IMG/VR virus record: IMGVR_UViG_3300008108_000067
Coordinates: 26,890 to 90,889 of that record
Strand: one strand, 5' to 3'
Source of the DNA: a virus
Length of the DNA stretch: 64,000 nucleotides
Shown: positions 4,361 through 54,124 of the stretch, one piece after another
How the letters are laid out: each line of letters starts with the position of its first letter
How positions within the stretch are numbered: the first letter of the stretch is position 1
The notes under the pieces: model-generated
What the model was told of the DNA's origin: nothing
The model's input: the letters and a program-made list of their open reading frames with translations, nothing else
The model's database searches: none
Made by a program: the position numbers and the translations under genes

Positions 4361-4931
4361 CGAATTCTCCGGCTTCGACCTTTATTAAATGGTCTTTGAG
4401 TTTTTGTATTTCTTCTTCTAAATCTCTTCGAACAGTAGTTAAATCAACATTCCATTTTTCAATCATCAAAATCTTTTCTTGGTCTGCATGAATAAATTCT
4501 GGTTGTGATAGATTTTCGTGGTAATTTTGAAGTTCTTGTATTCTATCTTTTACCCAGGCAATATGATTTTGTTTACCTTTTTCTACAATTGTTTCTACCC
4601 ATTTACCCTGACGTTTTAATTCCATCTCTTCTCTTTCTATACAATTATAACAAACACCACGTTTTTTATAAGCTTTTAGATGAACACCATTCAAGGGAGT
4701 GTCGCACTTTGGACACCACCACGGCGTTTTAAAACCATCCAGTTTAGTGACCGATTGGATTAATCCATTTTTCCTAGTCCACTTTGTACCATTTACATCC
4801 ACCCACACTTCACCTTCTTTTCGTTCAACTTGTTTCGGTGTCCAACCAAACGTAAGTTTTTGTTCCTGCTTGTTCATTACTTCACCAATTTTTCTTCTTA
4901 CGTTCTTCATTGCATCTTCATTTGTTGCCAT
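4314..4931 (-). CDS. Hypothetical zinc-finger protein
   Basis: CPKC...CYNC; GAGG SD upstream. Confidence 0.7.
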   Translation of the reverse strand: MATNEDAMKNVRRKIGEVMNKQEQKLTFGWTPKQVERKEGEVWVDVNGTKWTRKNGLIQSVTKLDGFKTPWWCPKCDTPLNGVHLKAYKKRGVCYNCIEREEMELKRQGKWVETIVEKGKQNHIAWVKDRIQELQNYHENLSQPEFIHADQEKILMIEKWNVDLTTVRRDLEEEIQKLKDHLIKVEAGEFDETGKFGDPAYTENN

Positions 4932-40026: not shown

Positions 40027-40034
40027 CGAAATAA

Positions 40035-40119
40035 AATAAGAACGCTCCCTATCAAACAGTTACCTGTTCTTCCTGCCACCACAACAAGTGCGCCACACTA
40101 CGCACGGGATGTTCTTATT
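40035..40119 (-). ncRNA. Candidate structured RNA between tRNA-Gly and tRNA-Ser
   Basis: Terminal stem AATAAGAAC..TCCC/GGGA..GTTCTTATT; GTGCG/CGCAC hairpin; AACAG-GTAA-CTGTT GNRA hairpin. Confidence 0.5.
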
Positions 40120-40123
40120 AAAA

Positions 40124-40196
40124 TGGAGCGGTCTGCCAGAGTTGAACTGCTCTTGTAAGCTGGAAGCTTACCGTGCTGACGTTACACTAAGACCGC
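40124..40196 (-). tRNA. tRNA-Gly(TCC), imperfect T-stem, encoded CCA
   Basis: GTAAG-CTTCCAG-CTTAC; acceptor GCGGTCT/AGACCGC; only 3 clean T-stem pairs. Confidence 0.7.
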
Positions 40197-40202
40197 GTGT
40201 TG

Positions 40203-40391
40203 TTACTTGGCTGCTGGACCTTCCTTTGGGGTGACCACGGTTGTGTCTGCTGCCTTGATTGAATCGGTGTTCAACTTAGTTGAATCAACTACCACTACGG
40301 TACTATCAGTGGTAACTTCACCCTGAACTTCTTCTGTCTTGGCACATGCCGTCAAACCAACTACTGCTACTGTAAGGATAAACTTGTACAT
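40203..40391 (-). CDS. Small lipoprotein
   Basis: Signal peptide with lipobox LTAC; GGAG SD before ATG 40391. Confidence 0.75.
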   Translation of the reverse strand: MYKFILTVAVVGLTACAKTEEVQGEVTTDSTVVVVDSTKLNTDSIKAADTTVVTPKEGPAAK

Positions 40392-40452
40392 TATGTACGC
40401 TCCATAAAATGAATAATGAAACAACCATTTAAAAATACTACGATACTACAAG

Positions 40453-40523
40453 TTGCCCTCCATGGAATCGAACCACGATTCGCTGATCCAAAGTCAGCTG
40501 TATTGCCATTATACGAGAGGGCA
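40453..40523 (-). tRNA. tRNA-Gln(TTG)
   Basis: GCTGA-CTTTGGA-TCAGC; U1-A72. Confidence 0.92.
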
Positions 40524-40524
40524 A

Positions 40525-40609
40525 TGGTGGGAAGGGGATTGATAGATTCCACTCTATCCAGCACCCCACGGACTAGAACCGTTTCCCATGCTGTTGCAAC
40601 ATTCCACCA
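40525..40609 (-). ncRNA. Candidate tRNA-like RNA with rearranged arms, ending in ACCA
   Basis: T-loop-like hairpin ACGG-TTCTAGT-CCGT precedes D-loop-like GATAGA-GTGGAA-TCTATC; 3' end TTCCCACCA. Confidence 0.5.
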
Positions 40610-40700
40610 AGTTGCCAAGCGTGTACACCCGCGTTGTATACACAAAACGGTAGAGTTCATTAATTAACGTCAGACCACTCTACCAAGCTGACGGGATCAA

Positions 40701-40793
40701 TTAGTGATTACGCTTACGATTCTTCCAACGATTTCTTCGTTTTTTCGAACCGACCTTTCTCCGACCTTTACCGCACTTTTTAGGATGTGGCAT
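40701..40793 (-). CDS. 30-aa highly basic peptide MPHPKKCGKGRRKVGSKKRRNRWKNRKRNH
   Basis: Manual translation; GGAG SD upstream. Confidence 0.65.
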   Translation of the reverse strand: MPHPKKCGKGRRKVGSKKRRNRWKNRKRNH

Positions 40794-40808
40794 CTCGTTC
40801 TCCAAAAA

Positions 40809-40882
40809 TGGTCCCTGAGGGACTTGAACCCCCGCACTTCGAATTATGAGTTCGCTGCTCTAACCGACTGAGCTAAGGGACC
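40809..40882 (-). tRNA. tRNA(CAT), probably Ile2 (lysidine type)
   Basis: Loop CTCATAA; body GGTCCCTTAGCTCAG resembles bacterial tRNA-Ile2. Confidence 0.8.
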
Positions 40883-40927
40883 GATAACTTCTATACAAGA
40901 GTTACTATTGAAAATTTACATAACCAG

Positions 40928-41001
40928 TCCGCCCCGCAGGACTTGAACCTGCACATCTTCGGTATATAAGACCGCTGCTGTCACCATTTAGCTAGAGGCG
41001 G
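40928..41001 (-). tRNA. tRNA-Ile(TAT)
   Basis: Anticodon arm GCGGT-CTTATAT-ACCGA; acceptor CCGCCTC/GGGGCGG; A73. Confidence 0.85.
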
Positions 41002-41016
41002 ATAATTCTATTTTAG

Positions 41017-41088
41017 TACCGCGTACGGGAATCGAACCCGTCTTACCAGAGTGAAAGTCTAGCGTCCTAGCCGATAGACGAACGCGGC
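41017..41088 (-). tRNA. tRNA-Glu(TTC)
   Basis: CTAGA-CTTTCAC-TCTGG. Confidence 0.93.
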
Positions 41089-41105
41089 ATCACATCAACA
41101 TTAAA

Positions 41106-41134
41106 AATATACATAGTCTGTTACTGTTTGTCAA
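41106..41134 (-). promoter_or_regulatory. Sigma70-type promoter TTGACA-N17-TATATT
   Basis: Immediately upstream of tRNA-Glu. Confidence 0.8.
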
Positions 41135-41147
41135 GCCTTGAATGATA

Positions 41148-41660
41148 TCAAAATCCCCGATATGCCATAATATTAGTTATTTTTTCACCAACTACACTAA
41201 TACTATCTACTACCTTTACTTTTTTATCATCCAAATATACTGTAATTTCATTTACCGATGTTCTGTTATTTTCACCGGAATTATTTACAACAATTCGAAT
41301 TGATTTAAATTGTTCAAATAATTTTCGGTTTTCTTCCAATACAGCTACTTTACCAGTAAATACATTTTCGTTCCATTCCGACAGTACTACATCATCTGCG
41401 TATAGTGTACTTAATCGTTTTAAATCTTTTGCAGAAAATGCATCGAAGTATTCTTTTACTATGTTTCCAATAGGTTTTTCTCTACTTAGTGGAAACAACA
41501 ACCACGCAACTAAATACACAGTAACAATTGGAAGTGGTGAAAAGAAAGAACAAATAAATACAAATCGGATGAATACAGGATCTATATTTAATTGCTCACC
41601 AATTCCTCCGCAAAATCCAGCAAGTCTTTTATTGGTTGCACTACGATAAAATTTTCTCAT
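41148..41660 (-). CDS. PspC-domain and NTF2/SnoaL-like fusion protein
   Basis: FYRSATNKRLAGFCGGIGEQLNIDPVFIR (PspC); YFDAFSAKDL...LYADDV (SnoaL-like). Confidence 0.8.
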   Translation of the reverse strand: MRKFYRSATNKRLAGFCGGIGEQLNIDPVFIRFVFICSFFSPLPIVTVYLVAWLLFPLSREKPIGNIVKEYFDAFSAKDLKRLSTLYADDVVLSEWNENVFTGKVAVLEENRKLFEQFKSIRIVVNNSGENNRTSVNEITVYLDDKKVKVVDSISVVGEKITNIMAYRGF

Positions 41661-41676
41661 ATATTCTCCTAGTTAG

Positions 41677-41750
41677 TCGGGGCGGAGGGATTTGAACCCC
41701 CGACCTCCTGCTCCCAAAGCAGGCGCGATACCAGGCTACGCTACGCCCCG
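41677..41750 (-). tRNA. tRNA-Pro(TGG)
   Basis: CCTGC-TTTGGGA-GCAGG. Confidence 0.95.
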
Positions 41751-41753
41751 AAG

Positions 41754-41834
41754 TGCTCTCGGTGAGACTCGAACTCACAAGCCTTGCGGCAGCAGTTTTT
41801 GAGACTGCCATGTATACCATTCCATCACAAGAGC
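41754..41834 (-). tRNA. tRNA-Leu(CAA)
   Basis: GCAGT-CTCAAAA-ACTGC; long variable arm. Confidence 0.93.
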
Positions 41835-41871
41835 GTTCATTACTTCCATTCATTCATTAACATTTTAAATG

Positions 41872-42098
41872 TGTAGTACAGCGGGAAAGGTGTTGTCCTG
41901 CAATCGGGTGATGAGTAGTTGCAACTCTTATCTGTGTATCGTCGTTATTCATCCTCAACTCAATGGAGTTGTTATCGGATATTTTTCTGCACGACCACCC
42001 CTATACATCGTCGTTATTCATCCTAACCCCAGGGGGTTTTCATCAGACGCCTTTCCATACGACCACTAACCGGCTAAGAGCCGTCCTGCTGTACTACA
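41872..42098 (-). ncRNA. Candidate 227-nt structured RNA with two tandem homologous domains
   Basis: 15-bp terminal stem; 18-nt direct repeat at 41938 and 42007; covarying internal hairpins. Confidence 0.65.
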
Positions 42099-42169
42099 TG
42101 GCTCGCTTGGGAGTCGAACCCAACTTTCTAGGTTATGATCCTAGCGTGACACCAGTTCACTTGCCAGCT
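42099..42169 (-). tRNA. Atypical or degenerate tRNA(CAT)
   Basis: CTAGG-ATCATAA-CCTAG; canonical T-arm; acceptor has A1-C72 and G5-G68 mismatches. Confidence 0.6.
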
Positions 42170-42217
42170 ACTGAAATTCTACACCTTGCCATATATTCAA
42201 TGATTTCCTTATTTTCA

Positions 42218-42246
42218 AGTATAATCAATGCTTCTTCTAATGTCAA
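42218..42246 (-). promoter_or_regulatory. Sigma70-type promoter TTGACA-N17-TATACT
   Basis: Upstream of the atypical tRNA(CAT) and the 227-nt RNA. Confidence 0.7.
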
Positions 42247-42366
42247 GTATTTAATTACCATAATATTCTCGTGTTGTAAAACATAACGACAGGACTTACG
42301 ACATAAGACATTCCATTCTTTCTGTTCGCCTACTACCAGTGGGTTGGTGGTTATCGTTATGTTTAG

Positions 42367-42438
42367 AGCACGTGGCGGGAATCGAACCCGCGTCTCTAGC
42401 TTGGAAGGCTAGGATAATAGCCATTATATGACACGTGC
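42367..42438 (-). tRNA. tRNA-Gly(TCC)
   Basis: CTAGC-CTTCCAA-GCTAG. Confidence 0.92.
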
Positions 42439-42537
42439 GGCGAGGTCTTTTTCACGCAGTTCCTCATCTTCGGTCTGGCACGATTCCAGACGAGTTGCGC
42501 TTGCTTTTAAGCTGCTTTCAACCCCCACAACTATTTT

Positions 42538-42747
42538 TTATTCAGAAAAATACTTATTCAAAGTTTCTAACTTATCATCGGCATCAACAAGCATCTGTAA
42601 TGCTTCTTCTGCATTCTTATAAAAATCACCAGTAGAATGGTCACCAATCCCAACAGGAACATTCATCAACAAGTCCAGTGAGAGAAGTGCCTTCTGTCGT
42701 TCTGCTTCTGCTTGCGTTCGTAACATTTCAACTACACGTGCTTTCAT
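42538..42747 (-). CDS. Small hypothetical protein (PVGIGDHS motif)
   Basis: GGAGG SD before ATG 42747. Confidence 0.75.
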   Translation of the reverse strand: MKARVVEMLRTQAEAERQKALLSLDLLMNVPVGIGDHSTGDFYKNAEEALQMLVDADDKLETLNKYFSE

Positions 42748-42767
42748 AATAACCTCCATTAGTAAAA

Positions 42768-42841
42768 TGGACGCTGAGGGATTCGAACCCCCGACATTTT
42801 GCGTGTAAAGCAAACACTCTAACCAGCTGAGTTAAGCGTCC
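42768..42841 (-). tRNA. tRNA-Val(TAC)
   Basis: TTTGC-TTTACAC-GCAAA. Confidence 0.93.
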
Positions 42842-42938
42842 GTTGTTGTCTATGAAGCCCTTTCACAAAATGTCGGACAACGCGACTACCGAGCGCAAGT
42901 ATACGCGTATCAAGCTGGGCCGCCCTCGGAATTAAAAA

Positions 42939-43011
42939 TGGATCCAGTCGGGATCGAACCGACGACCTTTCGCTTGCAAAGCGGATGCTCTCCCAGCTGA
43001 GCTATGGACCC
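42939..43011 (-). tRNA. tRNA-Ala(TGC)
   Basis: G3-U70; loop TTTGCAA. Confidence 0.94.
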
Positions 43012-43577
43012 GTGTTGTACGGAATTAAATTTAACAAGTATTCCTGATTTGTCAAGAACCATTCATACGTTAAATTTTCTGGTATTTCTATTAATTGGTT
43101 TTGACCACGTTCTAAAATGGTTAATCCCAACTCTATGTTAAATGTTTTAACAGAAAAATCTGTACGTTGACTTCTGAATTTTGCTACTGCTTTCCACACA
43201 TCTCCTGTCCACAATCCACGTTCACATAATTCTGTGTGGTGTGGCATTGGTGAACGTTGCATCAATTCGGTATGTGGTTTTGTATCGTGAACAAATATGA
43301 TACCATTATCATTTAGATGTCGAATGCTGTTATCTATATCTCTTAGGACTTGATTACATTCGTGGTCACCATCAATGAAAATAATATCATACATTTCGGT
43401 ACAGTTTTCAAAAAACTCATCAGATGTCATAGGGTATAACATATCTTTGTTATATGGATCTACCCCGTGCTTGATTGCACATTCTACATTGTAAAATGTA
43501 CCACCGTTACTAACACCGATTTCTAAGTATCTTGTATAATTTCGTTCAGCAATTACAGAATTAAATAATTCAAACAT
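43002..43577 (-). CDS. Class I SAM-dependent methyltransferase (Methyltransf_24-like)
   Basis: YLEIGV, DIIFIDGDH, GIIFVHD, WTGDVWK; start at 43577 after the GGAG SD. Confidence 0.85.
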   Translation of the reverse strand: MFELFNSVIAERNYTRYLEIGVSNGGTFYNVECAIKHGVDPYNKDMLYPMTSDEFFENCTEMYDIIFIDGDHECNQVLRDIDNSIRHLNDNGIIFVHDTKPHTELMQRSPMPHHTELCERGLWTGDVWKAVAKFRSQRTDFSVKTFNIELGLTILERGQNQLIEIPENLTYEWFLTNQEYLLNLIPYNTGP

Positions 43578-43589
43578 ATTTTCTCCAAG

Positions 43590-43661
43590 AGCGAGAGATG
43601 GGATTCGAACCCACGACAACGTGCTTGGCAAGCACGGACTCTACCACTGAGCTACTCTCGC
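43590..43661 (-). tRNA. tRNA-Gly(GCC)
   Basis: CGTGC-TTGCCAA-GCACG. Confidence 0.93.
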
Positions 43662-43666
43662 ATTTA

Positions 43667-43831
43667 CTACACAGGACCAACTTCATAATGCGTCAATACT
43701 TTTCCTTTTAATGCTGCTTGTGCATCAACATCATTACGAAACATCGTAATAGCTGCCGTTGCTTCAGGTGCCATATATGTAAAATCCATACTACCACCAT
43801 CAAAATATATTTTTACTAAATATTTACTCAT
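43667..43831 (-). CDS. 54-aa hypothetical protein MSKYLVKIYFDGGSMDFTY...
   Basis: Manual translation; fills the gap between two tRNAs. Confidence 0.6.
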   Translation of the reverse strand: MSKYLVKIYFDGGSMDFTYMAPEATAAITMFRNDVDAQAALKGKVLTHYEVGPV

Positions 43832-43839
43832 ATAGTTAG

Positions 43840-43922
43840 TGCTCCTGGTCGGACTCGAACCGACAAGCCTTGTGAGCGAGAGATTTTAAGTCTCTTGTGT
43901 TTACCGATTTCACCACAGGAGC
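43840..43922 (-). tRNA. tRNA-Leu(TAA)
   Basis: AGAGA-CTTAAAA-TCTCT; long variable arm. Confidence 0.93.
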
Positions 43923-43937
43923 AAAATTGGATGAGTT

Positions 43938-44133
43938 GTTGTAGTATCCTCTCATTTTATAGAGAAGAATTTACCTATCATCATTAGTGCCATCCTCACT
44001 AATGTTTATCCATACACGTTGATTTCTACTTACGGACTCTTCCCCTGCACCGTTGTAGTGGTGTCTCGACGTAAGGATCATAGAGAAGTCGTGTGGCGCG
44101 GGTTTAAACCATACCGCGGGTAAATTCTACAAC
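43938..44133 (-). ncRNA. Candidate ~200-nt multibranched structured RNA
   Basis: Nested stems GTTGTAG/CTACAAC, AATTTACC/GGTAAATT, CGCGG/CCGCG, CACG/CGTG, CTTACG/CGTAAG, CATTAGTG/CACTAATG. Confidence 0.55.
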
Positions 44134-44158
44134 CACCTTTACATTTTTTAATCAGCAG

Positions 44159-44232
44159 TGCCCCCACTAGGACTCGAACCTAGAACTTACTGGTTAAAAG
44201 CCAGCTACTCTGACCAATTGAGTTATGGAGGC
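44159..44232 (-). tRNA. tRNA-Lys(TTT)
   Basis: GCTGG-CTTTTAA-CCAGT. Confidence 0.93.
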
Positions 44233-44249
44233 GTTTAACTTACACAAGT

Positions 44250-44278
44250 AATATATATTACCCACGTACAAATGTCAA
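44250..44278 (-). promoter_or_regulatory. Sigma70-type promoter TTGACA-N17-TATATT
   Basis: Immediately upstream of tRNA-Lys. Confidence 0.8.
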
Positions 44279-44305
44279 GCCCCCAATCTAAATAAATAGT
44301 AAATA

Positions 44306-44419
44306 TTATTTTTTTCGTTTTTTTGGAGTCTTTTTTACGGTTGTAGATTTTACTTTTATTCTAGCTTGCCACGATTTCTTTGGTTTTCTCGTGTGTGACT
44401 TTCTTCGTGTCCATGCCAT
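44306..44419 (-). CDS. 37-aa highly basic peptide MAWTRRKSHTRKPKKSWQARIKVKSTTVKKTPKKRKK
   Basis: Manual translation; AGGAG SD upstream. Confidence 0.6.
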   Translation of the reverse strand: MAWTRRKSHTRKPKKSWQARIKVKSTTVKKTPKKRKK

Positions 44420-44439
44420 ATATACATTTCTCCTATTAA

Positions 44440-44526
44440 CGGAAGAGGTGGGATTCGAACCCACGGTAGGAATTACCCTACGGCTGTTTAGTAGACAGCT
44501 GCCTTAAACCACTCGGCCACCCTTCC
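44440..44526 (-). tRNA. tRNA-Ser(ACT), unusual A34 anticodon
   Basis: GCTGT-CTACTAA-ACAGC; Ser-type body with long variable arm and G73. Confidence 0.88.
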
Positions 44527-44531
44527 AACAC

Positions 44532-45557
44532 TCACTGATAATCAGCTCTCCAAACATTGCTTGTTTCTGAGTAACTTTCATTCAATATTTTTAACGAGTA
44601 TTCTACGTAATTATCACCATCAAACCAACCAGAACCCTTATGCTTAACCATATCTACATATCCACGAAGTTGAATTTTTGTGATATTATGGTTACCTGCT
44701 TGTAGAAAATATTGTACAGTTCCACCTTTATCGTGACTAATAGTTAATTGTAACTTATCACTTCCAAATTCTTTCCACAATTGTTCCAAATCTTCATGTT
44801 GTCCTTTATGTGCTTTAAATTCATTTGGATAATGACAAGAAATCCAATTAAATTTATGTAGATTAGCACATTCTCGTGACAATCCCACAAAATCATTTCT
44901 AACCTTTTGTTGTTGCAAATTAAAAACTAGTCGTGGATTGTTTATATAATGTTTATCCGATAATCGTTCGTTTACTGTTAATTTCCGTATCATATAATCG
45001 TATGTTAATGAATTTTCATCATATATGTCCATACGCACAGGTTCATCAAAGATATATTCTTTTTCTTTGTATCTGAAATTATACGGATACGCATCTCCAG
45101 CCAACGAAACAAATACAGAACGATTAACCGTTGTTAATCCTTGAATTGAGTCCAAATGATTTTTAAAATTTGGAAGAAACTCAATGTCGGTGTCGGTATG
45201 AAAAATCCAATCGGCATCAAAGAAATTATATTTTTTGGAATAGTCAAACATCATATTCATGTTTAACCCAATCTTTGCAAACCAATGTTGGCTTTTCATA
45301 AACTCTACTGATTTTTCTGGAAGTTCCATTTCATTAACATTACGAACTTCTACGATATCTTCCAATCCAAAATCTTTAACACGTTGCCACGTTAAACTAT
45401 CTTCTGATTTTTCTGGATTTGCATTGTTAAAAAGTATAACCTTAGTTTCAAAATGTGGAACTACGTTAACTTTTAAAGAAGCCAAATAAAGATTTATGTA
45501 TCGTAAATCTTCTTCTTCATTTGTTTTTCCACAAGTTGATAGTATCAAAATTTTCAT
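44532..45557 (-). CDS. Putative GT-A fold glycosyltransferase-like protein
   Basis: WIFHTDTDIEF DxD motif; start at 45557 after the GGAG SD. Confidence 0.5.
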   Translation of the reverse strand: MKILILSTCGKTNEEEDLRYINLYLASLKVNVVPHFETKVILFNNANPEKSEDSLTWQRVKDFGLEDIVEVRNVNEMELPEKSVEFMKSQHWFAKIGLNMNMMFDYSKKYNFFDADWIFHTDTDIEFLPNFKNHLDSIQGLTTVNRSVFVSLAGDAYPYNFRYKEKEYIFDEPVRMDIYDENSLTYDYMIRKLTVNERLSDKHYINNPRLVFNLQQQKVRNDFVGLSRECANLHKFNWISCHYPNEFKAHKGQHEDLEQLWKEFGSDKLQLTISHDKGGTVQYFLQAGNHNITKIQLRGYVDMVKHKGSGWFDGDNYVEYSLKILNESYSETSNVWRADYQ

Positions 45558-45572
45558 AATTTCTCCAAAATA

Positions 45573-45646
45573 CGGAATGGACGGGACTCGAACCCGCAAC
45601 CCCCGCAGTGACAGTGCGGTGCGCTAACCGATTGCGCCACCACTCC
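45573..45646 (-). tRNA. tRNA-Asp(GTC)
   Basis: CCGCA-CTGTCAC-TGCGG. Confidence 0.94.
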
Positions 45647-45655
45647 CAGCAACAA

Positions 45656-45913
45656 TTATTTAATTTTACTCTGCGTTACTGTTTCGTAAAGTTTTTCAAA
45701 CTCTTGATGCGTTGCTACTTCGTCATCAAAATTCTGCTTGTGATACGTCTTTGCTAACTTACGAAAAACTTTCTTGTTAAGTTGAAGTTCTTCACAGATA
45801 TCATTGATAATGTTTTTCTGTAAGTCTCGTTCTGCGGAAATTCGTGTCATAGATACACTCATATCCTTTAATGCACCTTCCAACTTCAACTTGTCATTCG
45901 GTGTTAAATTCAT
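45656..45913 (-). CDS. Double-stranded DNA-binding protein (T4 DsbA / GapR-like)
   Basis: SMTRISAERDLQKNI...KKVFRKLAKTYHKQNF...FEKLYE. Confidence 0.75.
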   Translation of the reverse strand: MNLTPNDKLKLEGALKDMSVSMTRISAERDLQKNIINDICEELQLNKKVFRKLAKTYHKQNFDDEVATHQEFEKLYETVTQSKIK

Positions 45914-45955
45914 AATAACCTCGTTGTTGTGATGTTGTAAATAAAATGTTTTTCG

Positions 45956-46051
45956 TTATGAATCTTCTTTTTCTAAGAATCTAGCAATGTATACAGTTCC
46001 ACCCACTGCACACATCATAACCACTAAAAATATTAGAATTGCGGATAACAT
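45956..46051 (-). CDS. 31-aa membrane peptide MLSAILIFLVVMMCAVGGTVYIARFLEKEDS
   Basis: AGGAG SD; one TM segment. Confidence 0.55.
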   Translation of the reverse strand: MLSAILIFLVVMMCAVGGTVYIARFLEKEDS

Positions 46052-46069
46052 ATTTTCTCCTATGGTAAG

Positions 46070-46142
46070 CTCCCAGAGAGGGACTCGAACCCCCGACCCG
46101 GTGATTAACAGTCACCTGCTCTACCGACTGAGCTATCTGGGA
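46070..46142 (-). tRNA. tRNA-Asn(GTT)
   Basis: GGTGA-CTGTTAA-TCACC. Confidence 0.94.
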
Positions 46143-46264
46143 ATATTGTGAGATTCGCACTCACTTGGGGTCATTCAGCAACATCTACATATCAGCAGTT
46201 GCCACCGATATGTCTCTGGTATCAGCCTTCACCCCTAGCTTACCAAATTAAAACTTATCTTCCT

Positions 46265-47389
46265 TTATGGTACTATAACTACCTTTGCATTATCCGAAAC
46301 TGTTCCAATTGATGCCGAAACAAATGTGGTTCCTGGCGCGATACCCAACAAAAGACCAATATTCGACACTCGTGCTGTTGCATTGTTAGTGGTGGTCCAC
46401 TCAAACGGACGACCATTCAGTGCTGCGACACTCAAAGGAACACTATCAGCATCAAATGCTGTGGCTGTGTATTGACGGGTAGCACCCACCTTCAGGTCTG
46501 AACTATCAGGTGAAACCACAATGTAATCAATACCCACTTCTGTTACATTCACCACCAATGTACCCACTCTGTTTTCAACAACACAAGTAATAATCGTGGT
46601 ACCGTAGGTAAGGCCTGTGATTACACCCGTTGCAGAAACGGTAGCAATGGATTCATCACTACTATGCCAACCAAATGTGCGTTGTGCAGCGGTCAGTGCT
46701 GTACCTGAACTGTTACGCAAATCTGCGACAACTGTTGCAGGGCGTCCAACATGAGCTGGCTTAGGCAATGTGAGAAGTACACGAGCGACAGGAACCAAAG
46801 ATACCGTGACGTTCAACGTACCTGTTTTTCCACCCGAAGTTGCGGTAATAGTAGTTGTACCTGCCGACAATGCAGTAATCAATCCTGTTGCGGACACTGA
46901 GGCGACGGCTGGCGTGCTTGATGTCCAAGTAGTGGTGAATGATGTCAGTGTATTATTTCCACTGTCCCGTGCAACAGAGGTTGCCTGTAATGTCTGACCA
47001 ACAAAAAACGTAGGCGGTACAGTTGCCGTTACTGTGACAGTAGCTACTGTTGGGTCTGTTACGAAAATCGTAGCAGTTGCGAATTTACCACCCACTGCCG
47101 CTGTAATTGTAGCTTGACCCTTGGATACTCCTGTTACTAACCCATTAACAACTGTTGCGACCGATGTATTATTTGATGACCATGCAACTGTTTGATCTCT
47201 CATAACAGAATCACGTTGATCTTTAACAGTGGGCGTGATGTTAATTGTACGTCCAATTTCAAGTTGTGTAGCAGTAACATTTAATGATACTGTTGTTACC
47301 GCCGGTGTTACTGGAGCCGTAACAACGGCTTCTTCCGTGCACGCGGTAATACTCAATGCCAACAATGTTCCATACAAAATACGCTTCAT
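46265..47389 (-). CDS. Lipoprotein with four bacterial Ig-like (Big_2) domains
   Basis: Lipobox ITAC; four repeats of W-x-S/T...VA-x-V...G-x-V/I/L...G-x-T/A. Confidence 0.88.
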   Translation of the reverse strand: MKRILYGTLLALSITACTEEAVVTAPVTPAVTTVSLNVTATQLEIGRTINITPTVKDQRDSVMRDQTVAWSSNNTSVATVVNGLVTGVSKGQATITAAVGGKFATATIFVTDPTVATVTVTATVPPTFFVGQTLQATSVARDSGNNTLTSFTTTWTSSTPAVASVSATGLITALSAGTTTITATSGGKTGTLNVTVSLVPVARVLLTLPKPAHVGRPATVVADLRNSSGTALTAAQRTFGWHSSDESIATVSATGVITGLTYGTTIITCVVENRVGTLVVNVTEVGIDYIVVSPDSSDLKVGATRQYTATAFDADSVPLSVAALNGRPFEWTTTNNATARVSNIGLLLGIAPGTTFVSASIGTVSDNAKVVIVP

Positions 47390-47457
47390 TTTTTTCTCCT
47401 ACTAAGGTAATCCGACACAACCGAGTGTTGTGCCTTCTAAGCCGGGATATCCCGACA

Positions 47458-47529
47458 CAGGCCCACTAGGACTCGAACCTAGACAAACGCTTTTGGAGAG
47501 CGTTGTGCTGCCAATTACACCATGAACCC
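47458..47529 (-). tRNA. tRNA-Trp(CCA)
   Basis: ACGCT-CTCCAAA-AGCGT. Confidence 0.92.
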
Positions 47530-47533
47530 AGAG

Positions 47534-47607
47534 TACACCAGGCTAGAGTTGAACTAGCGACCTTTCGTGTATCAGACGAATGCTCTAACCAACTGAGCTA
47601 CTGGTGT
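47534..47607 (-). tRNA. tRNA-Ile(GAT)
   Basis: TTCGT-CTGATAC-ACGAA. Confidence 0.92.
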
Positions 47608-47620
47608 GCATCTTACAAAA

Positions 47621-47703
47621 TGGGAGTGGTTGGACTCGAACCAACGTAGATTATTAATCGGCAGATTTACAGTCTGCTGCCATTGCCGCTAGGCGACACT
47701 CCC
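47621..47703 (-). tRNA. tRNA-Tyr(GTA)
   Basis: GCAGA-CTGTAAA-TCTGC; long variable arm. Confidence 0.93.
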
Positions 47704-47709
47704 AAACTA

Positions 47710-48291
47710 CTATTTTTTCAAATCGTTTTTGATGTCTCGTTTGACCTTTTTAAGATAACCAATTCGCGTTTCATTGTCAACGAATGGTACACTCCAAAAC
47801 TGTCGTGTATTTGTCTTAAACCACCCAAATACAAATGAATATACTCCTAATACTAACCGTAATTTTACGGCATTGAAATATAACATATATACAGGAAGTG
47901 CGGGTGCTCCGTGTGTTAAGTATGTACGAACCTTTTTGTGTGACAATAATGGTTTTGGATAACCATATTTTGGAATTAACGGAACAAACTTATATGCGAA
48001 TCCTGGTGTGAATACCACATCAAAGAATTCTTCCATTAGTGGTGTACACCGAAACCACCACACAGGTGATATAATGTAAATTCTATCTGCCCATGTCACC
48101 AACTCTTGATAATGTTTAATAACTTCTTTCTTTTTGATGGAAAGATCATCTTTATAGAGGTCAATGACTTCTATGGTTTGTGTAGATTCATAGCTTGCGT
48201 TATTAGTTAATTCGTCTTTAATGGTTTTAAAAATACCATTATAACAAAAACTTTTCTTATCAGGATGTCCGATGACTATTAAATTGTTCAT
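47710..48291 (-). CDS. Flavodoxin-like NAD(P)H-dependent oxidoreductase
   Basis: IGHPDKKSF, IDLYKD, SPVWWF, VFTPGFAY. Confidence 0.88.
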   Translation of the reverse strand: MNNLIVIGHPDKKSFCYNGIFKTIKDELTNNASYESTQTIEVIDLYKDDLSIKKKEVIKHYQELVTWADRIYIISPVWWFRCTPLMEEFFDVVFTPGFAYKFVPLIPKYGYPKPLLSHKKVRTYLTHGAPALPVYMLYFNAVKLRLVLGVYSFVFGWFKTNTRQFWSVPFVDNETRIGYLKKVKRDIKNDLKK

Positions 48292-48319
48292 TTCACTCCT
48301 TGTAAAAGTTATAAAACAA

Positions 48320-48393
48320 TAGCGGGGGAGGGATTCGAACCCTCGACCTCACGATTATGAGTCGTGCGCTCTCACCAACTGAGCTACCCTGCC
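48320..48393 (-). tRNA. tRNA-Met(CAT), elongator type
   Basis: CACGA-CTCATAA-TCGTG. Confidence 0.9.
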
Positions 48394-48545
48394 ACTTTTC
48401 GAATGTATACTTTAAACCAAATAAATATTTTATCTAAATTGGAAAACGTTCTCCAATTCTTAACTTCGTTAATTGTACGATAACATCCTACACAACGTGT
48501 ACCTTCAAGTTTACATATTTTTTTACACGGAGAATTTATAACCAC
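48384..48545 (-). CDS. DUF1289-like small Cys protein (53 aa, GTG start)
   Basis: SPCKKICKL...CVGCYRTINEVKNW; manual translation. Confidence 0.75.
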   Translation of the reverse strand: MVINSPCKKICKLEGTRCVGCYRTINEVKNWRTFSNLDKIFIWFKVYIRKVAG

Positions 48546-48814
48546 CGAAATATTCCTGTTATGTCAATTAGTATCCATACCGCATTGACAATAACCATTG
48601 GATAATCTTTCTTATTAAAGAAACTGTGTAACATTCCACCGTGTCCAAAAAAGAAAAGTAAATATGGTATCCACATAGGAATGTTAGGAATTCTACCAGC
48701 TAATATAATTCCACCCACAATTAAAATTAATACAGCCCACCATTTACGTTTAACAATAATGTGCTCTTCTGTTTCTGTTAAAGTTACTGGTTTCGCAAAT
48801 AAAATATTTTTCAT
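48536..48814 (-). CDS. Small multi-pass membrane protein
   Basis: Three hydrophobic segments. Confidence 0.7.
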   Translation of the reverse strand: MKNILFAKPVTLTETEEHIIVKRKWWAVLILIVGGIILAGRIPNIPMWIPYLLFFFGHGGMLHSFFNKKDYPMVIVNAVWILIDITGIFRWL

Positions 48815-48966
48815 TTATATTGACCAGTATCTATTGAATTCTGGATATCACCACCTTGTAACACTTCTGGTTCGGTATCCCCTATAAACATAATAACACC
48901 AAAAAATATCATTACAACAATAACCAAAGTAGTTGCGATTACTTTTTTAACTTGTTTAGTATCCAT
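48811..48966 (-). CDS. Small single-pass membrane protein
   Basis: Start moved to ATG 48966 (AGGAG SD); the longer ORF reads through tRNAs. Confidence 0.6.
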   Translation of the reverse strand: MDTKQVKKVIATTLVIVVMIFFGVIMFIGDTEPEVLQGGDIQNSIDTGQYK

Positions 48967-48985
48967 AATATAATCTCCTATAAAA

Positions 48986-49068
48986 AGGTGCGAGCCAGAT
49001 TCGAACTGGCGTGGGATTTCTCCAAAGGTTTTGCAGACCCGTGCCTTCAGCCACTCGGCCATCGCACC
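48986..49068 (-). tRNA. tRNA-Cys(GCA) with a long variable arm
   Basis: Loop CTGCAAA; U73; extra arm TGGAGAAATCCCAC. Confidence 0.85.
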
Positions 49069-49071
49069 GTA

Positions 49072-49145
49072 TGCTCCTGGAGGGACTCGAACCCCCAACC
49101 CACTGAGTAGAAATCAGTTGCGCTATCCAATTACGCCACAGAAGC
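49072..49145 (-). tRNA. tRNA-Arg(TCT)
   Basis: ACTGA-TTTCTAC-TCAGT. Confidence 0.92.
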
Positions 49146-49179
49146 AGTTAATGTATTTGACCAAATTACAAAATATATT

Positions 49180-49539
49180 TTATTTACCTAAACTATGTCG
49201 AATAGGTTTTCCTGTTTCATCAACACACACAAATACCATCTCATCAATATCAACAATAACTTTTTGTGTAGTTAAATCTCGTACTTGCACTTCCAAAGTA
49301 ATAGAAGTTTTTCCAACGGTTTTTAACGCCACTCCGATTTCAACAACATCCCCTTGATATGCAGGTGCAACAAAGTTAATAGCAGACATACTTTTTGTCA
49401 CAACTTTTTTATGTCGGGTTTCAATTGCCGCATAAATTGATGCTTCTTCGTCAACCCAAGCCAAACACCGGCCCCCGAACAATGTGCCGTTTATATTTAA
49501 ATCACCTGGTTGCACCAATTTTCTAGTTAAGAATCTCAT
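49180..49539 (-). CDS. Acyl-CoA thioesterase (hotdog fold)
   Basis: PGDLNINGTLFGGRCLAWVDE, INFVAP, VGKTSI. Confidence 0.9.
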   Translation of the reverse strand: MRFLTRKLVQPGDLNINGTLFGGRCLAWVDEEASIYAAIETRHKKVVTKSMSAINFVAPAYQGDVVEIGVALKTVGKTSITLEVQVRDLTTQKVIVDIDEMVFVCVDETGKPIRHSLGK

Positions 49540-49560
49540 AAAATTTTTGTTTAAATGTTA

Positions 49561-49634
49561 TGCCCCAAGCAGGAGTCGAACCCACAACCCTCTGATCCGA
49601 AGTCAGATGCTCTATCCAATTGAGCTATTGAGGC
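49561..49634 (-). tRNA. tRNA-Arg(TCG)
   Basis: TCTGA-CTTCGGA-TCAGA; A20 in the D-loop. Confidence 0.9.
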
Positions 49635-49637
49635 GTA

Positions 49638-49706
49638 TCAGGTAGGAGGGAGTCTCTCCCCCCGTTCCACAGGCGGGTGCCCCTACCATCTGGGCCGCAT
49701 ACCTGA
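49638..49706 (-). ncRNA. tRNA-His(GTG)-like element lacking a canonical T-loop
   Basis: D-arm GCCC-AGATGGTAG-GGGC; anticodon loop CTGTGGA; T-arm replaced by GGGAG-AGA-CTCCC. Confidence 0.5.
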
Positions 49707-49738
49707 ATTATGTTTTCATATAATACCATTGGGAATAA

Positions 49739-53748: not shown

Positions 53749-53785
53749 TGTTTACTCCAACAAAATGTAAACACTAACCGTTAAG

Positions 53786-54124
53786 TGGACCTGAGGGGAA
53801 TCGAACCCCTGTCCGAGATTGCTTCCTACTAAATGTTTATGTGTGTAGTCAGTTATTTGAATTCATTCAGTTCTCATTAACTAACAAACGTAAACTGAAT
53901 ATAGAACCGAAGTATCACCTTGAATACGGTTCCTATCAAGGCTATACCACATAAATGAACAAATTAACCCTATGCGGTAATCTCAGATTAATTCGTCAGG
54001 CTGCAATTAAGCAGCGAGGGCTAAAGTATAGTTGCCAGTTAGATTTTTTGGTCTGTTTTACTCGTCTTACCAAACGAGACACAAAACTTAATCATCCACA
54101 CCCCGTCGAAACCAGGACAGGCCC
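53786..54124 (-). ncRNA. ssrA: tmRNA; tag reading frame GNYTLALAA* at 54036-54007
   Basis: 5' GGGCCTG..GGTTTCGAC, 3' GGTTCGATTCCCCTCAGGTCCA; G3-U70; TAACT before the resume codon; tag ends ALAA. Confidence 0.93.

Follow-up and report, generated by a model that had tools for sequence, protein, structure and literature searches.

A covarying structured RNA in the tRNA operons of uncultured lake phages

Introduction

That phage tRNA clusters can encode additional stable RNAs has been clear since T4; the role of these RNAs is still unexplained. In T4 itself, rnaC (species 1, 139 nt) and rnaD (species 2, 119 nt) are small stable RNAs that are co-transcribed and processed with the tRNAs, and we know of no established function for either. 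The element described here resembles them in lying within a phage tRNA cluster, on the same strand as 27 tRNAs and abutting one of them; rnaD starts 1 nt after tRNA-Arg (NC_000866), and the element likewise adjoins a tRNA. Differences are also evident: rnaC ends in a tRNA-like T-arm, which the element lacks, and the two systems differ in host range and phage group. A covariance model of the element's family, run on the T4 tRNA region with filters off, scored at most 2.8 bits over rnaC and rnaD, which is no homology.

GOLLD and ROOL, the latter about 600 nt, are large, ornate RNAs encoded by phages or prophages, often located near tRNA islands and not known to have a function or a protein partner, and they show that RNAs of tRNA clusters can be elaborate machines. 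Both self-assemble by kissing loops and A-minor contacts, and GOLLD, with many examples of >800 nt, is far larger than the element (bioRxiv 10.1101/2024.12.08.627333). The element has a palindromic hairpin tip that could, in principle, kiss in the manner of their loops; the GOLLD and ROOL models gave no match to it at E<=10. In essence, the element is of the same kind as T4 rnaC/rnaD and GOLLD/ROOL, and homologous to none of them.

Two further systems invite comparison. HDV-like theta ribozymes adjoin phage and viral tRNAs, placed where they could define the tRNA 3' end (PMC10879173). The window—our term for the whole 64-kb stretch of DNA analysed—shows the same tRNA adjacency, but in the element's family this adjacency is not conserved; moreover, the element's 5' and 3' ends pair mutually, and no HDV-family model matches it. 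Tandem aptamers are the second precedent: as in the glycine riboswitch, the window has two similar domains in one RNA, and the NAD+-I riboswitch is another such tandem. Here, too, the element departs from the known examples, in that its tandem form is not conserved, its two sites are unequal, and it has neither an expression platform nor an Rfam match.

The family to which the element belongs offers a compact example, of roughly 200 nt, of a tRNA-cluster RNA with a covariation-supported fold, a defined operon slot, and RNA-library evidence from lakes and rivers. Natural domain-swap and insertion variants mark its core and peripheral parts, and its size suits chemical probing, cryo-EM, and pull-downs, making it a tractable way into the roles of tRNA-cluster RNAs. 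The analysis also corrects an attractive but unsupported reading of the element as a tandem aptamer.

The element and its surroundings

The window comes from a 90.9-kb IMG/VR phage record, about 47% complete, and the 27 tRNAs and one tmRNA of the window all lie on its minus strand. For the phage's large terminase, identity to the proteins of Flavobacterium phage immuto and Microcystis phage Mel-JY01 is about 53%. Within the phage's tRNA operon, the gene for the whole RNA spans 227 nt on the minus strand. Its parts and neighbors are as follows.

41872..42098, minus strand: whole RNA gene, 227 nt; a covariance model from seven variants matches once per genome, at 220.7 bits
42084..42098, minus strand: P1 5' strand, UGUAGUACAGCAGGA, with the first copy of a GCAGGAC heptamer; pairs with 41872-41886
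42071..42083, minus strand: P2 hairpin, CGGCU-CUU-AGCCG; two pairs occur as 3-4 standard pair types, and the CUU loop is invariant in the seven variants
42007..42066, minus strand: unit 1, the arm P3-P4-P5, with the invariant internal loop AUGGAAAGGC and the 18-mer AGGAUGAAUAACGACGAU; in 7/7 variants
42050..42056, minus strand: GGAAAGG within unit 1's internal loop; as the 5' half it could form a candidate pseudoknot with its complement CCUUUCC, 41884-41890
41938..41998, minus strand: unit 2, a lineage-specific copy of the arm in place of the family's P7 hairpin; only in the window and variant L001
41910..41932, minus strand: P8 hairpin, GAUAAG-AGUUGCAACUA-CUCAUC; its tip is a 10-nt perfect palindrome, 41917-41926
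41887..41909, minus strand: P6 3' strand (CCC, UGC) and conserved 3' tail GAUUGCAGGACAACACCUU, with the second GCAGGAC copy; near-invariant in the seven variants
41872..41886, minus strand: P1 3' strand, UCCCGCUGUACUACA; pairs with 42084-42098
42099..42170, minus strand: tRNA(CAU)-like gene directly upstream; ARAGORN and Rfam, 38.2 bits; its discriminator adjoins P1
42218..42246, minus strand: sigma-70-like promoter site, TTGACA-17-TATACT; 11/12 in a consensus scan, a pattern match only
41753..41834, minus strand: tRNA-Leu(CAA), 37 nt downstream; likely the RNase P cut site that frees the element's 3' side

The sequence features listed in an earlier note, made from the letters of this DNA alone, are all found at the positions it gave. 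The outer stem, described there as 15 bp with one mismatch, is formed by arms of 15 nt each (41872-41886 and 42084-42098) that are 93% complementary, with a single A·C mismatch. The two tandem units said to share an identical 18-mer occupy 42066-42007 (60 nt) and 41998-41938 (61 nt) of the minus strand and adopt a like fold. Exactly two copies of the 18-mer, AGGATGAATAACGACGAT, occur on the minus strand of the 64-kb window (41938-41955 and 42007-42024, a start-to-start spacing of 69 nt), where chance predicts 0.11 even with up to three mismatches allowed. The inner hairpins do differ between units while each still pairs (AACCC/GGGUU versus CAACUC/GAGUUG), and GUCU/GGAU in one unit stands opposite AUCC/GGAU in the other. 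The element's first base is, as claimed, the next one after an atypical tRNA(CAT): the discriminator A is at 42099, and this tRNA, written tRNA(CAU) at the RNA level, scores low at 38.2 bits and has two non-standard acceptor pairs. The promoter that the note assigned to it is visible at 11/12 positions as a pattern match, and this promoter-like site precedes a unit made up of tRNA(CAU), the element, tRNA-Leu, and tRNA-Pro. The 227-nt RNA has a fold z-score of -2.16. We place these features above chance because seven distinct homologues retain the same helices via compensatory changes.

Coding alternatives were considered and rejected. A small ORF beginning MYRGG, of 12-30 aa among the variants, diverges after residue 4-5, changes with hairpin covariation, and was judged non-coding; on the plus strand, length differences of 31 and 76 nt between variants break any frame in the ORFs at 41869-42069 and 41963-42286.

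A phage-only family in a fixed slot

Exact-pattern scans of IMG/VR and JGI lake metagenomes returned eight viral and seven lake contigs, some of them identical, which reduce to seven distinct variants of 197-273 nt: the window and loci L002, L028, L001, L005, L008, and L006. Their cores are 86-96% identical. Other pattern matches (L004, L007, and L012-L024) were chance occurrences in coding DNA and were discarded. A covariance model built from the seven variants, R1, finds one copy in each of two genomes, G000 and G001.

Beyond these contigs the element was not found. R1 had no match in 24 IMG/VR relatives with a large terminase 75-89% identical, a set with many fragments in which absence is firm only where the slot itself is visible, nor in LR756508 or the two phages nearest among cultured ones by large terminase, Flavobacterium phage immuto and Microcystis phage Mel-JY01. 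In bacterial genomes, a 27-base pattern gave 0 matches and a 17-base pattern gave 43, none of which matched R1. A blastn search against 50,697 phage records matched only the neighboring tRNA-Pro, and neither the conserved 17-mer nor the conserved 14-mer was found in the papers searched.

The earlier note had staked its reading on the lack of a known Rfam family, and here it held up: at gathering threshold, Rfam 15 reports only the 27 tRNAs and the tmRNA over the whole window, and a search of 41600-42400 at E<=10 places no family on the element proper. The extra rows at the looser threshold are a Tymo_tRNA-like match (42081-42163), most of which covers the upstream tRNA, and an lncRNA match on the opposite strand that is due to chance. 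The element is therefore best described as belonging to a new, phage-only family of structured non-coding RNAs, about 197-273 nt long, in a small group of uncultured lake phages.

Its position in the genome is fixed. At every locus the element follows tRNA-Gly(UCC) and precedes tRNA-Leu(CAA) or tRNA-Thr(UGU). In L002 and L028 it directly adjoins tRNA-Gly(UCC), starting 1 nt after its discriminator. Elsewhere additional sequence is wedged between the two: L001 and L008-L010 have a 79-aa Zn-ribbon ORF there, L005 and L006 a different ORF, and the window the promoter with the tRNA(CAU)-like gene. The ends of P1 are precisely where homology between variants stops. The Zn-ribbon ORF was rejected as a candidate partner, being confined to L001 and L008-L010. 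A Pfam scan of 30 window proteins revealed no RNA-binding or RNA-processing protein, and neither a terminator-like site after the element nor a conserved regulated ORF downstream was found.

Relatives illustrate that the slot may be empty or otherwise used. In G002, whose large terminase is 89% identical, Gly(UCC) and Leu(CAA) lie 2 nt apart with no element between them, and in G016, a 90%-complete relative, the slot is filled by other non-coding modules. Patchy presence among relatives indicates that the RNA is dispensable, and the combination of one copy per genome, a fixed slot, and an empty slot marks a syntenic dispensable cassette rather than a mobile repeat. Where present, the RNA is conserved more strongly than the phage backbone: a comparison of the window with L005 gives 87% nucleotide identity for the RNA core and only 74% amino-acid identity for the large terminase.

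A fold supported by covariation

The structure was derived from the seven-variant alignment with RNAalifold, and pair counts were made on the structure as we state it. P1 closes a junction from which emerge the P2 hairpin, the arm P3-P4-P5 (unit 1), and P6, which forks into P7 and P8. Across 58 pairs, 97% of cells are paired, and nine pairs are changed on both sides. Shuffled alignments were as good on either value in 0 of 500 cases, a figure to be read with the caveat that among seven close variants (86-96% core identity) kinship alone can beat shuffles without structure; slid controls pair only 26-54% of cells. Of the consensus pairs, 98% recur in the MFE structure of the minimal variant. 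Fold z-scores lie between -1.7 and -3.2. Taken together, covariation supports the predicted four-way junction, on the thin base of seven related variants, and the claim of a discrete structured RNA is supported.

Stems covary while loops and junctions are near-invariant in the seven variants. P1 changes from G-C to A-U at one pair and from A-U to G-U or C-G to U-G elsewhere, with its A·C mismatch invariant. One position in P2 has four pair types. P5 covaries as AACCC/GGGUU, AAUCC/GGAUU, and CAACUC/GAGUUG; P7 shows a compensatory C-G to U-A change in L028; and P8 changes from A-U to G-C in L005 and L008. P3, P4, and P6 vary through wobble pairs only, the GGG/CCC of P6 only to G·U. G·U pairs also favor one strand: 97.0% of cells are paired when the minus strand is read as RNA, against 88.2% for the opposite strand, and the 40 G·U cells therefore point to the minus strand as the RNA strand in the window, as had been argued earlier from G-U pairs between the copies.

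Unit 2 as a lineage-specific swap

The description of the element as two tandem, covarying domains survives in part. Covariation is real, but the two-domain design is not conserved: a second unit is present in just two of the seven variants, the window and L001, and the loops are unequal. At the position of unit 2, the other five (L002, L028, L005, L008, and L006) have a short hairpin of the form GGUCAU-stem-CGAUU loop-stem-GUGAUAC. The two sites are not equivalent: the AUGGAAAGGC loop of unit 1, invariant in 7/7 variants, has GCAGAAAAAU as its counterpart in unit 2. Given this replacement and the restricted distribution, a two-aptamer design is not the conserved feature of the family. Furthermore, the inner hairpin of unit 2, CAACUC/GAGUUG, is the form found in the L005 lineage; covariation between the copies accordingly reflects ancestry by swap or duplication rather than selection on two sites.

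The motifs GUGGUC(G/A)U and GAU flank unit 1 and the P7 hairpin alike. Unit 2 is a copy of unit 1 that has replaced the P7 hairpin in this lineage, and recombination between these flanking motifs is the likely route. Natural variation of another sort is seen at the P4-P5 junction of unit 1, where L005, L008, and L006 carry insertions of 39, 45, and 76 nt; in one metatranscriptome contig, 84 other bases occupy this position. Swaps and insertions thus assign P5, the insertion site, and P7 to the periphery; the core consists of the internal loops, the 18-mer strand, and the 3' tail.

The element in RNA libraries

Six metatranscriptome runs from five studies contain 38-53% of the words of a 501-nt query. 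Contigs from four runs (four studies) were mapped onto 41650-42350. Three studies yielded contigs confined to the element, all at 100% identity: 41883-42074 (192 nt), 41882-42079 (198 nt), and 41880-42040 (161 nt). A 103-nt RNA contig (42049-42151) joins the element to tRNA(CAU), and a 208-nt RNA contig (41807-42014), from the fourth study, joins it to tRNA-Leu. The promoter and spacer, 42171-42350, are uncovered in 4/4 runs. The samples in which element RNA was found come from lakes and rivers. These contigs fit a polycistronic precursor together with an accumulating processed RNA, with the reservation that assembled contigs carry no strand, true ends, or abundance and that DNA carry-over in RNA libraries is possible. 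Expression, on which the earlier note had also made its case depend, is in this sense indicated by contigs that cover the element in the RNA libraries of four studies, which do not give strand, ends, or level.

How the RNA may be made and act

The explanation we prefer, and consider probable if well short of assured, is that the element is a stable structured RNA of a new phage family, co-transcribed with tRNAs, freed by tRNA processing, and predicted to act in trans. Transcription would proceed together with the tRNAs, in the window from the promoter ahead of the tRNA(CAU)-like gene; two RNA contigs link the element physically to its neighboring tRNAs. The 5' end would be generated by a cut after the discriminator of the upstream tRNA, leaving the first base of P1. 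Such a cut would be of RNase Z type, given that the tRNA gene encodes no CCA; P1 begins immediately after the discriminator. Four variants follow a protein gene, not a tRNA, so RNase Z is not a general route to the 5' end. On the other side, RNase P may cut at the downstream tRNA, after which the 3' end would be trimmed as far as P1, leaving both RNA ends shielded by P1. Action in trans would be exerted through unpaired surfaces that do not vary, namely the AUGGAAAGGC and CGAUU loops, the 18-mer strand, and the tail that contains GCAGGAC. The mature RNA probably binds or sequesters a host or phage factor.

The main rival to this explanation is a purely cis role, in which the element is a module that separates or protects neighboring tRNAs in the precursor, perhaps as a guide for RNase Z or RNase P or as a block to exonucleases, and the excised RNA is a by-product without function in trans. 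We regard this as unlikely. It accords with the placement of P1 in the window, L002, and L028, where its first base directly follows the tRNA discriminator, with the invariable location inside a tRNA operon, and with the ability of relatives to manage without the element. Yet about 100 unpaired invariant positions and a four-way junction exceed what a spacer needs, the element follows an ORF rather than a tRNA in L001, L005, L006, and L008, and the element-only contigs in RNA libraries suggest that the RNA accumulates.

Catalysis is a further prospect. A self-cleaving ribozyme, theta-like or tandem hammerhead-like, could trim the 3' end of the upstream tRNA, and three lines of evidence lend this some appeal: the coincidence of the element's 5' end with the tRNA discriminator in three variants, a CUGAUGA string in unit 1 of the window, and the precedent of theta ribozymes beside viral tRNAs (PMC10879173). 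We nonetheless consider it very unlikely. Models of the hammerhead, HDV, hatchet, twister, and pistol ribozymes found no match at E<=10, and CUGAUGA gives way to CCGAUGA, CUGAAAA, or CCGAUAA in other units. A hammerhead would have GAAA after stem II, where the element has AGGAU, and the pairing of nt 1-15 with the last 15 is unlike the nested double pseudoknot of HDV-like ribozymes. An upstream tRNA is absent from four variants, and the RNA contigs run unbroken through both units, one of them across the junction between tRNA and element. The suggestion of a tandem ribozyme, one of two functions offered by the earlier note, accordingly finds no footing in ribozyme families at E<=10 or in conservation of the string.

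The other function offered there, a two-site RNA that binds a ligand or protein, fares little better. Read as a pair of riboswitch-like tandem aptamers, it draws support from the like-folded units, the identical 18-mer, and the inner hairpins that differ in sequence and remain paired. Against it stand the lack of a second unit in 5/7 variants, and of the invariant AUGGAAAGGC loop in unit 2 where that unit exists. Riboswitch context is missing as well: there is no expression platform or terminator, what lies downstream is tRNA-Leu, tRNA-Thr, or unrelated genes, and no riboswitch family was matched at E<=10. We judge this reading highly improbable.

At the DNA level, terminal inverted repeats of 15 bp, a size of 200-270 bp, homology that breaks sharply at the repeat ends, and an empty site in one relative could suggest a MITE-like mobile element inserted into the tRNA cluster. 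A transposing element would hardly be expected to keep to a single copy per genome in the same slot, always after tRNA-Gly(UCC), with no target-site duplication visible in the flanks. Differences between the arms are, moreover, G·U wobbles on one strand only, the internal hairpins covary, and the sequence is found in RNA libraries, all of which leaves mobility a scarcely credible account.

Least credible of all is a miniature RNase P-like catalytic RNA serving the phage's 27 tRNAs: GGAAAG, AGGAUGAAU, and GACAACA-CCUUUCC follow what we take to be the order of conserved regions I, IV, and V of RNase P RNA, and GGAAAGG/CCUUUCC could form a P4-like pseudoknot, but RF00010 and RF02357 have no match at E<=10 in the 90.9-kb record while matching control genomes, an 801-nt search with all of Rfam finds no RNase P family at E<=10, the order of hairpins and stems is unlike RNase P P2/P3, a long insert lies between the 3' strands of 'P2' and 'P4', and close relatives dispense with the gene.

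Some passing resemblances were also set aside. A sponge for CsrA-type proteins was rejected by reasoning alone: the 227 nt contain 5 GGA where about 3.5 are expected, and the best of them are base-paired. Likenesses to 5S rRNA, the T-box, and the glycine riboswitch were dropped, no family being placed on the element at E<=10.

Candidate long-range and intermolecular contacts

Returning to the preferred reading of a trans-acting RNA, the element contains sequences that might make contacts beyond the secondary structure. GGAAAGG (42056-42050) and CCUUUCC (41890-41884) could form a 7-bp pairing, both sides being invariant in the seven variants, and a repeat finder reports at these sites a 10-nt arm at 90%. 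The resulting pseudoknot is speculative, and it would come at the cost of three P1 pairs, those on the inner side of the invariant A·C mismatch. Equally speculative is an alternative hairpin that would use the second GCAGGAC copy, in the tail.

A bolder possibility, which we rate as improbable, is that the RNA is an active agent on tRNAs or the translation machinery rather than a passive stable RNA, either self-assembling via the tip of P8, as an RNA-only dimer or larger complex, to capture a host factor or acting as a compact catalyst in the maturation of the phage's CCA-less tRNAs. Were it an active agent, the window's extra arm would supply a second copy of the surface that bears the 18-mer; were it self-assembling, the element would be a small counterpart of the GOLLD and ROOL cages. 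Dimerization or kissing of two molecules through the palindromic tip of P8 is likewise speculative. In L028 the palindrome AGUUGCAACU is changed to AGUUCGAACU, GC to CG, and is still a perfect palindrome, a single event for which the chance expectation is about one in three.

Variants and neighbors of the element

Variation within the element is also seen in RNA libraries. A 144-nt metatranscriptome contig from run X15 (window 42011-42078) matches both flanks of the P4/P5 junction in unit 1, the P3-P4-P5 arm of the element, with 84 other bases separating the two matching flanks; an insertion-bearing variant of the element RNA therefore occurs there too.

At some loci a small ORF separates tRNA-Gly(UCC) from the element, as in the example listed here.

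L009:9033-9272, +, 79-aa ORF with two CxxC pairs, Zn-ribbon-like

This ORF occurs at four loci (L009, L001 at 4593-4835, L008 and L010), and its stop codon lies within P1, the closing stem of the element. It was not found at the loci of the other element variants examined, and is therefore no general partner of the element. The P1 sequence itself has no further copy in the window, where only weak matches with three mismatches occur.

The position after tRNA-Gly(UCC)

Two features precede the element in the window.

42099-42170, -, tRNA(CAT), scoring only 38.2 bits, with two non-standard acceptor-stem pairs
42218-42246, -, promoter-like site ahead of tRNA(CAT)

This tRNA(CAT) may function chiefly in processing, as a handle for the RNA that follows it. 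Neither the tRNA(CAT) nor the promoter-like site is present in G002, a terminase relative without the element, in which the gap from tRNA-Gly(UCC) to tRNA-Leu(CAA) is 2 nt. The same slot is occupied in G016, another element-free relative.

L120:1573-1973, non-coding stretch of ~400 nt in the slot after tRNA-Gly(UCC)

The slot after tRNA-Gly(UCC) seems to be a hotspot of small RNA modules. Within the G016 stretch, a module of ~115 nt closed by UGUGGU/ACCACA directly follows the tRNA, and a TTGACA site comes next; the tail of the stretch is homologous to the downstream flank of the element in L006, an element variant.

Other features of the window

40030-49710, -, tRNA cluster with spacers
41148-41660, -, PspC domain fused to a SnoaL/NTF2-like domain
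53783-54124, -, phage-encoded tmRNA (138 bits; tag GNYTLALAA)

Going downstream from the tRNA-Leu/tRNA-Pro pair, the PspC fusion is the first gene that codes for a protein. The tmRNA lies outside the tRNA cluster, ~4 kb past its far end.
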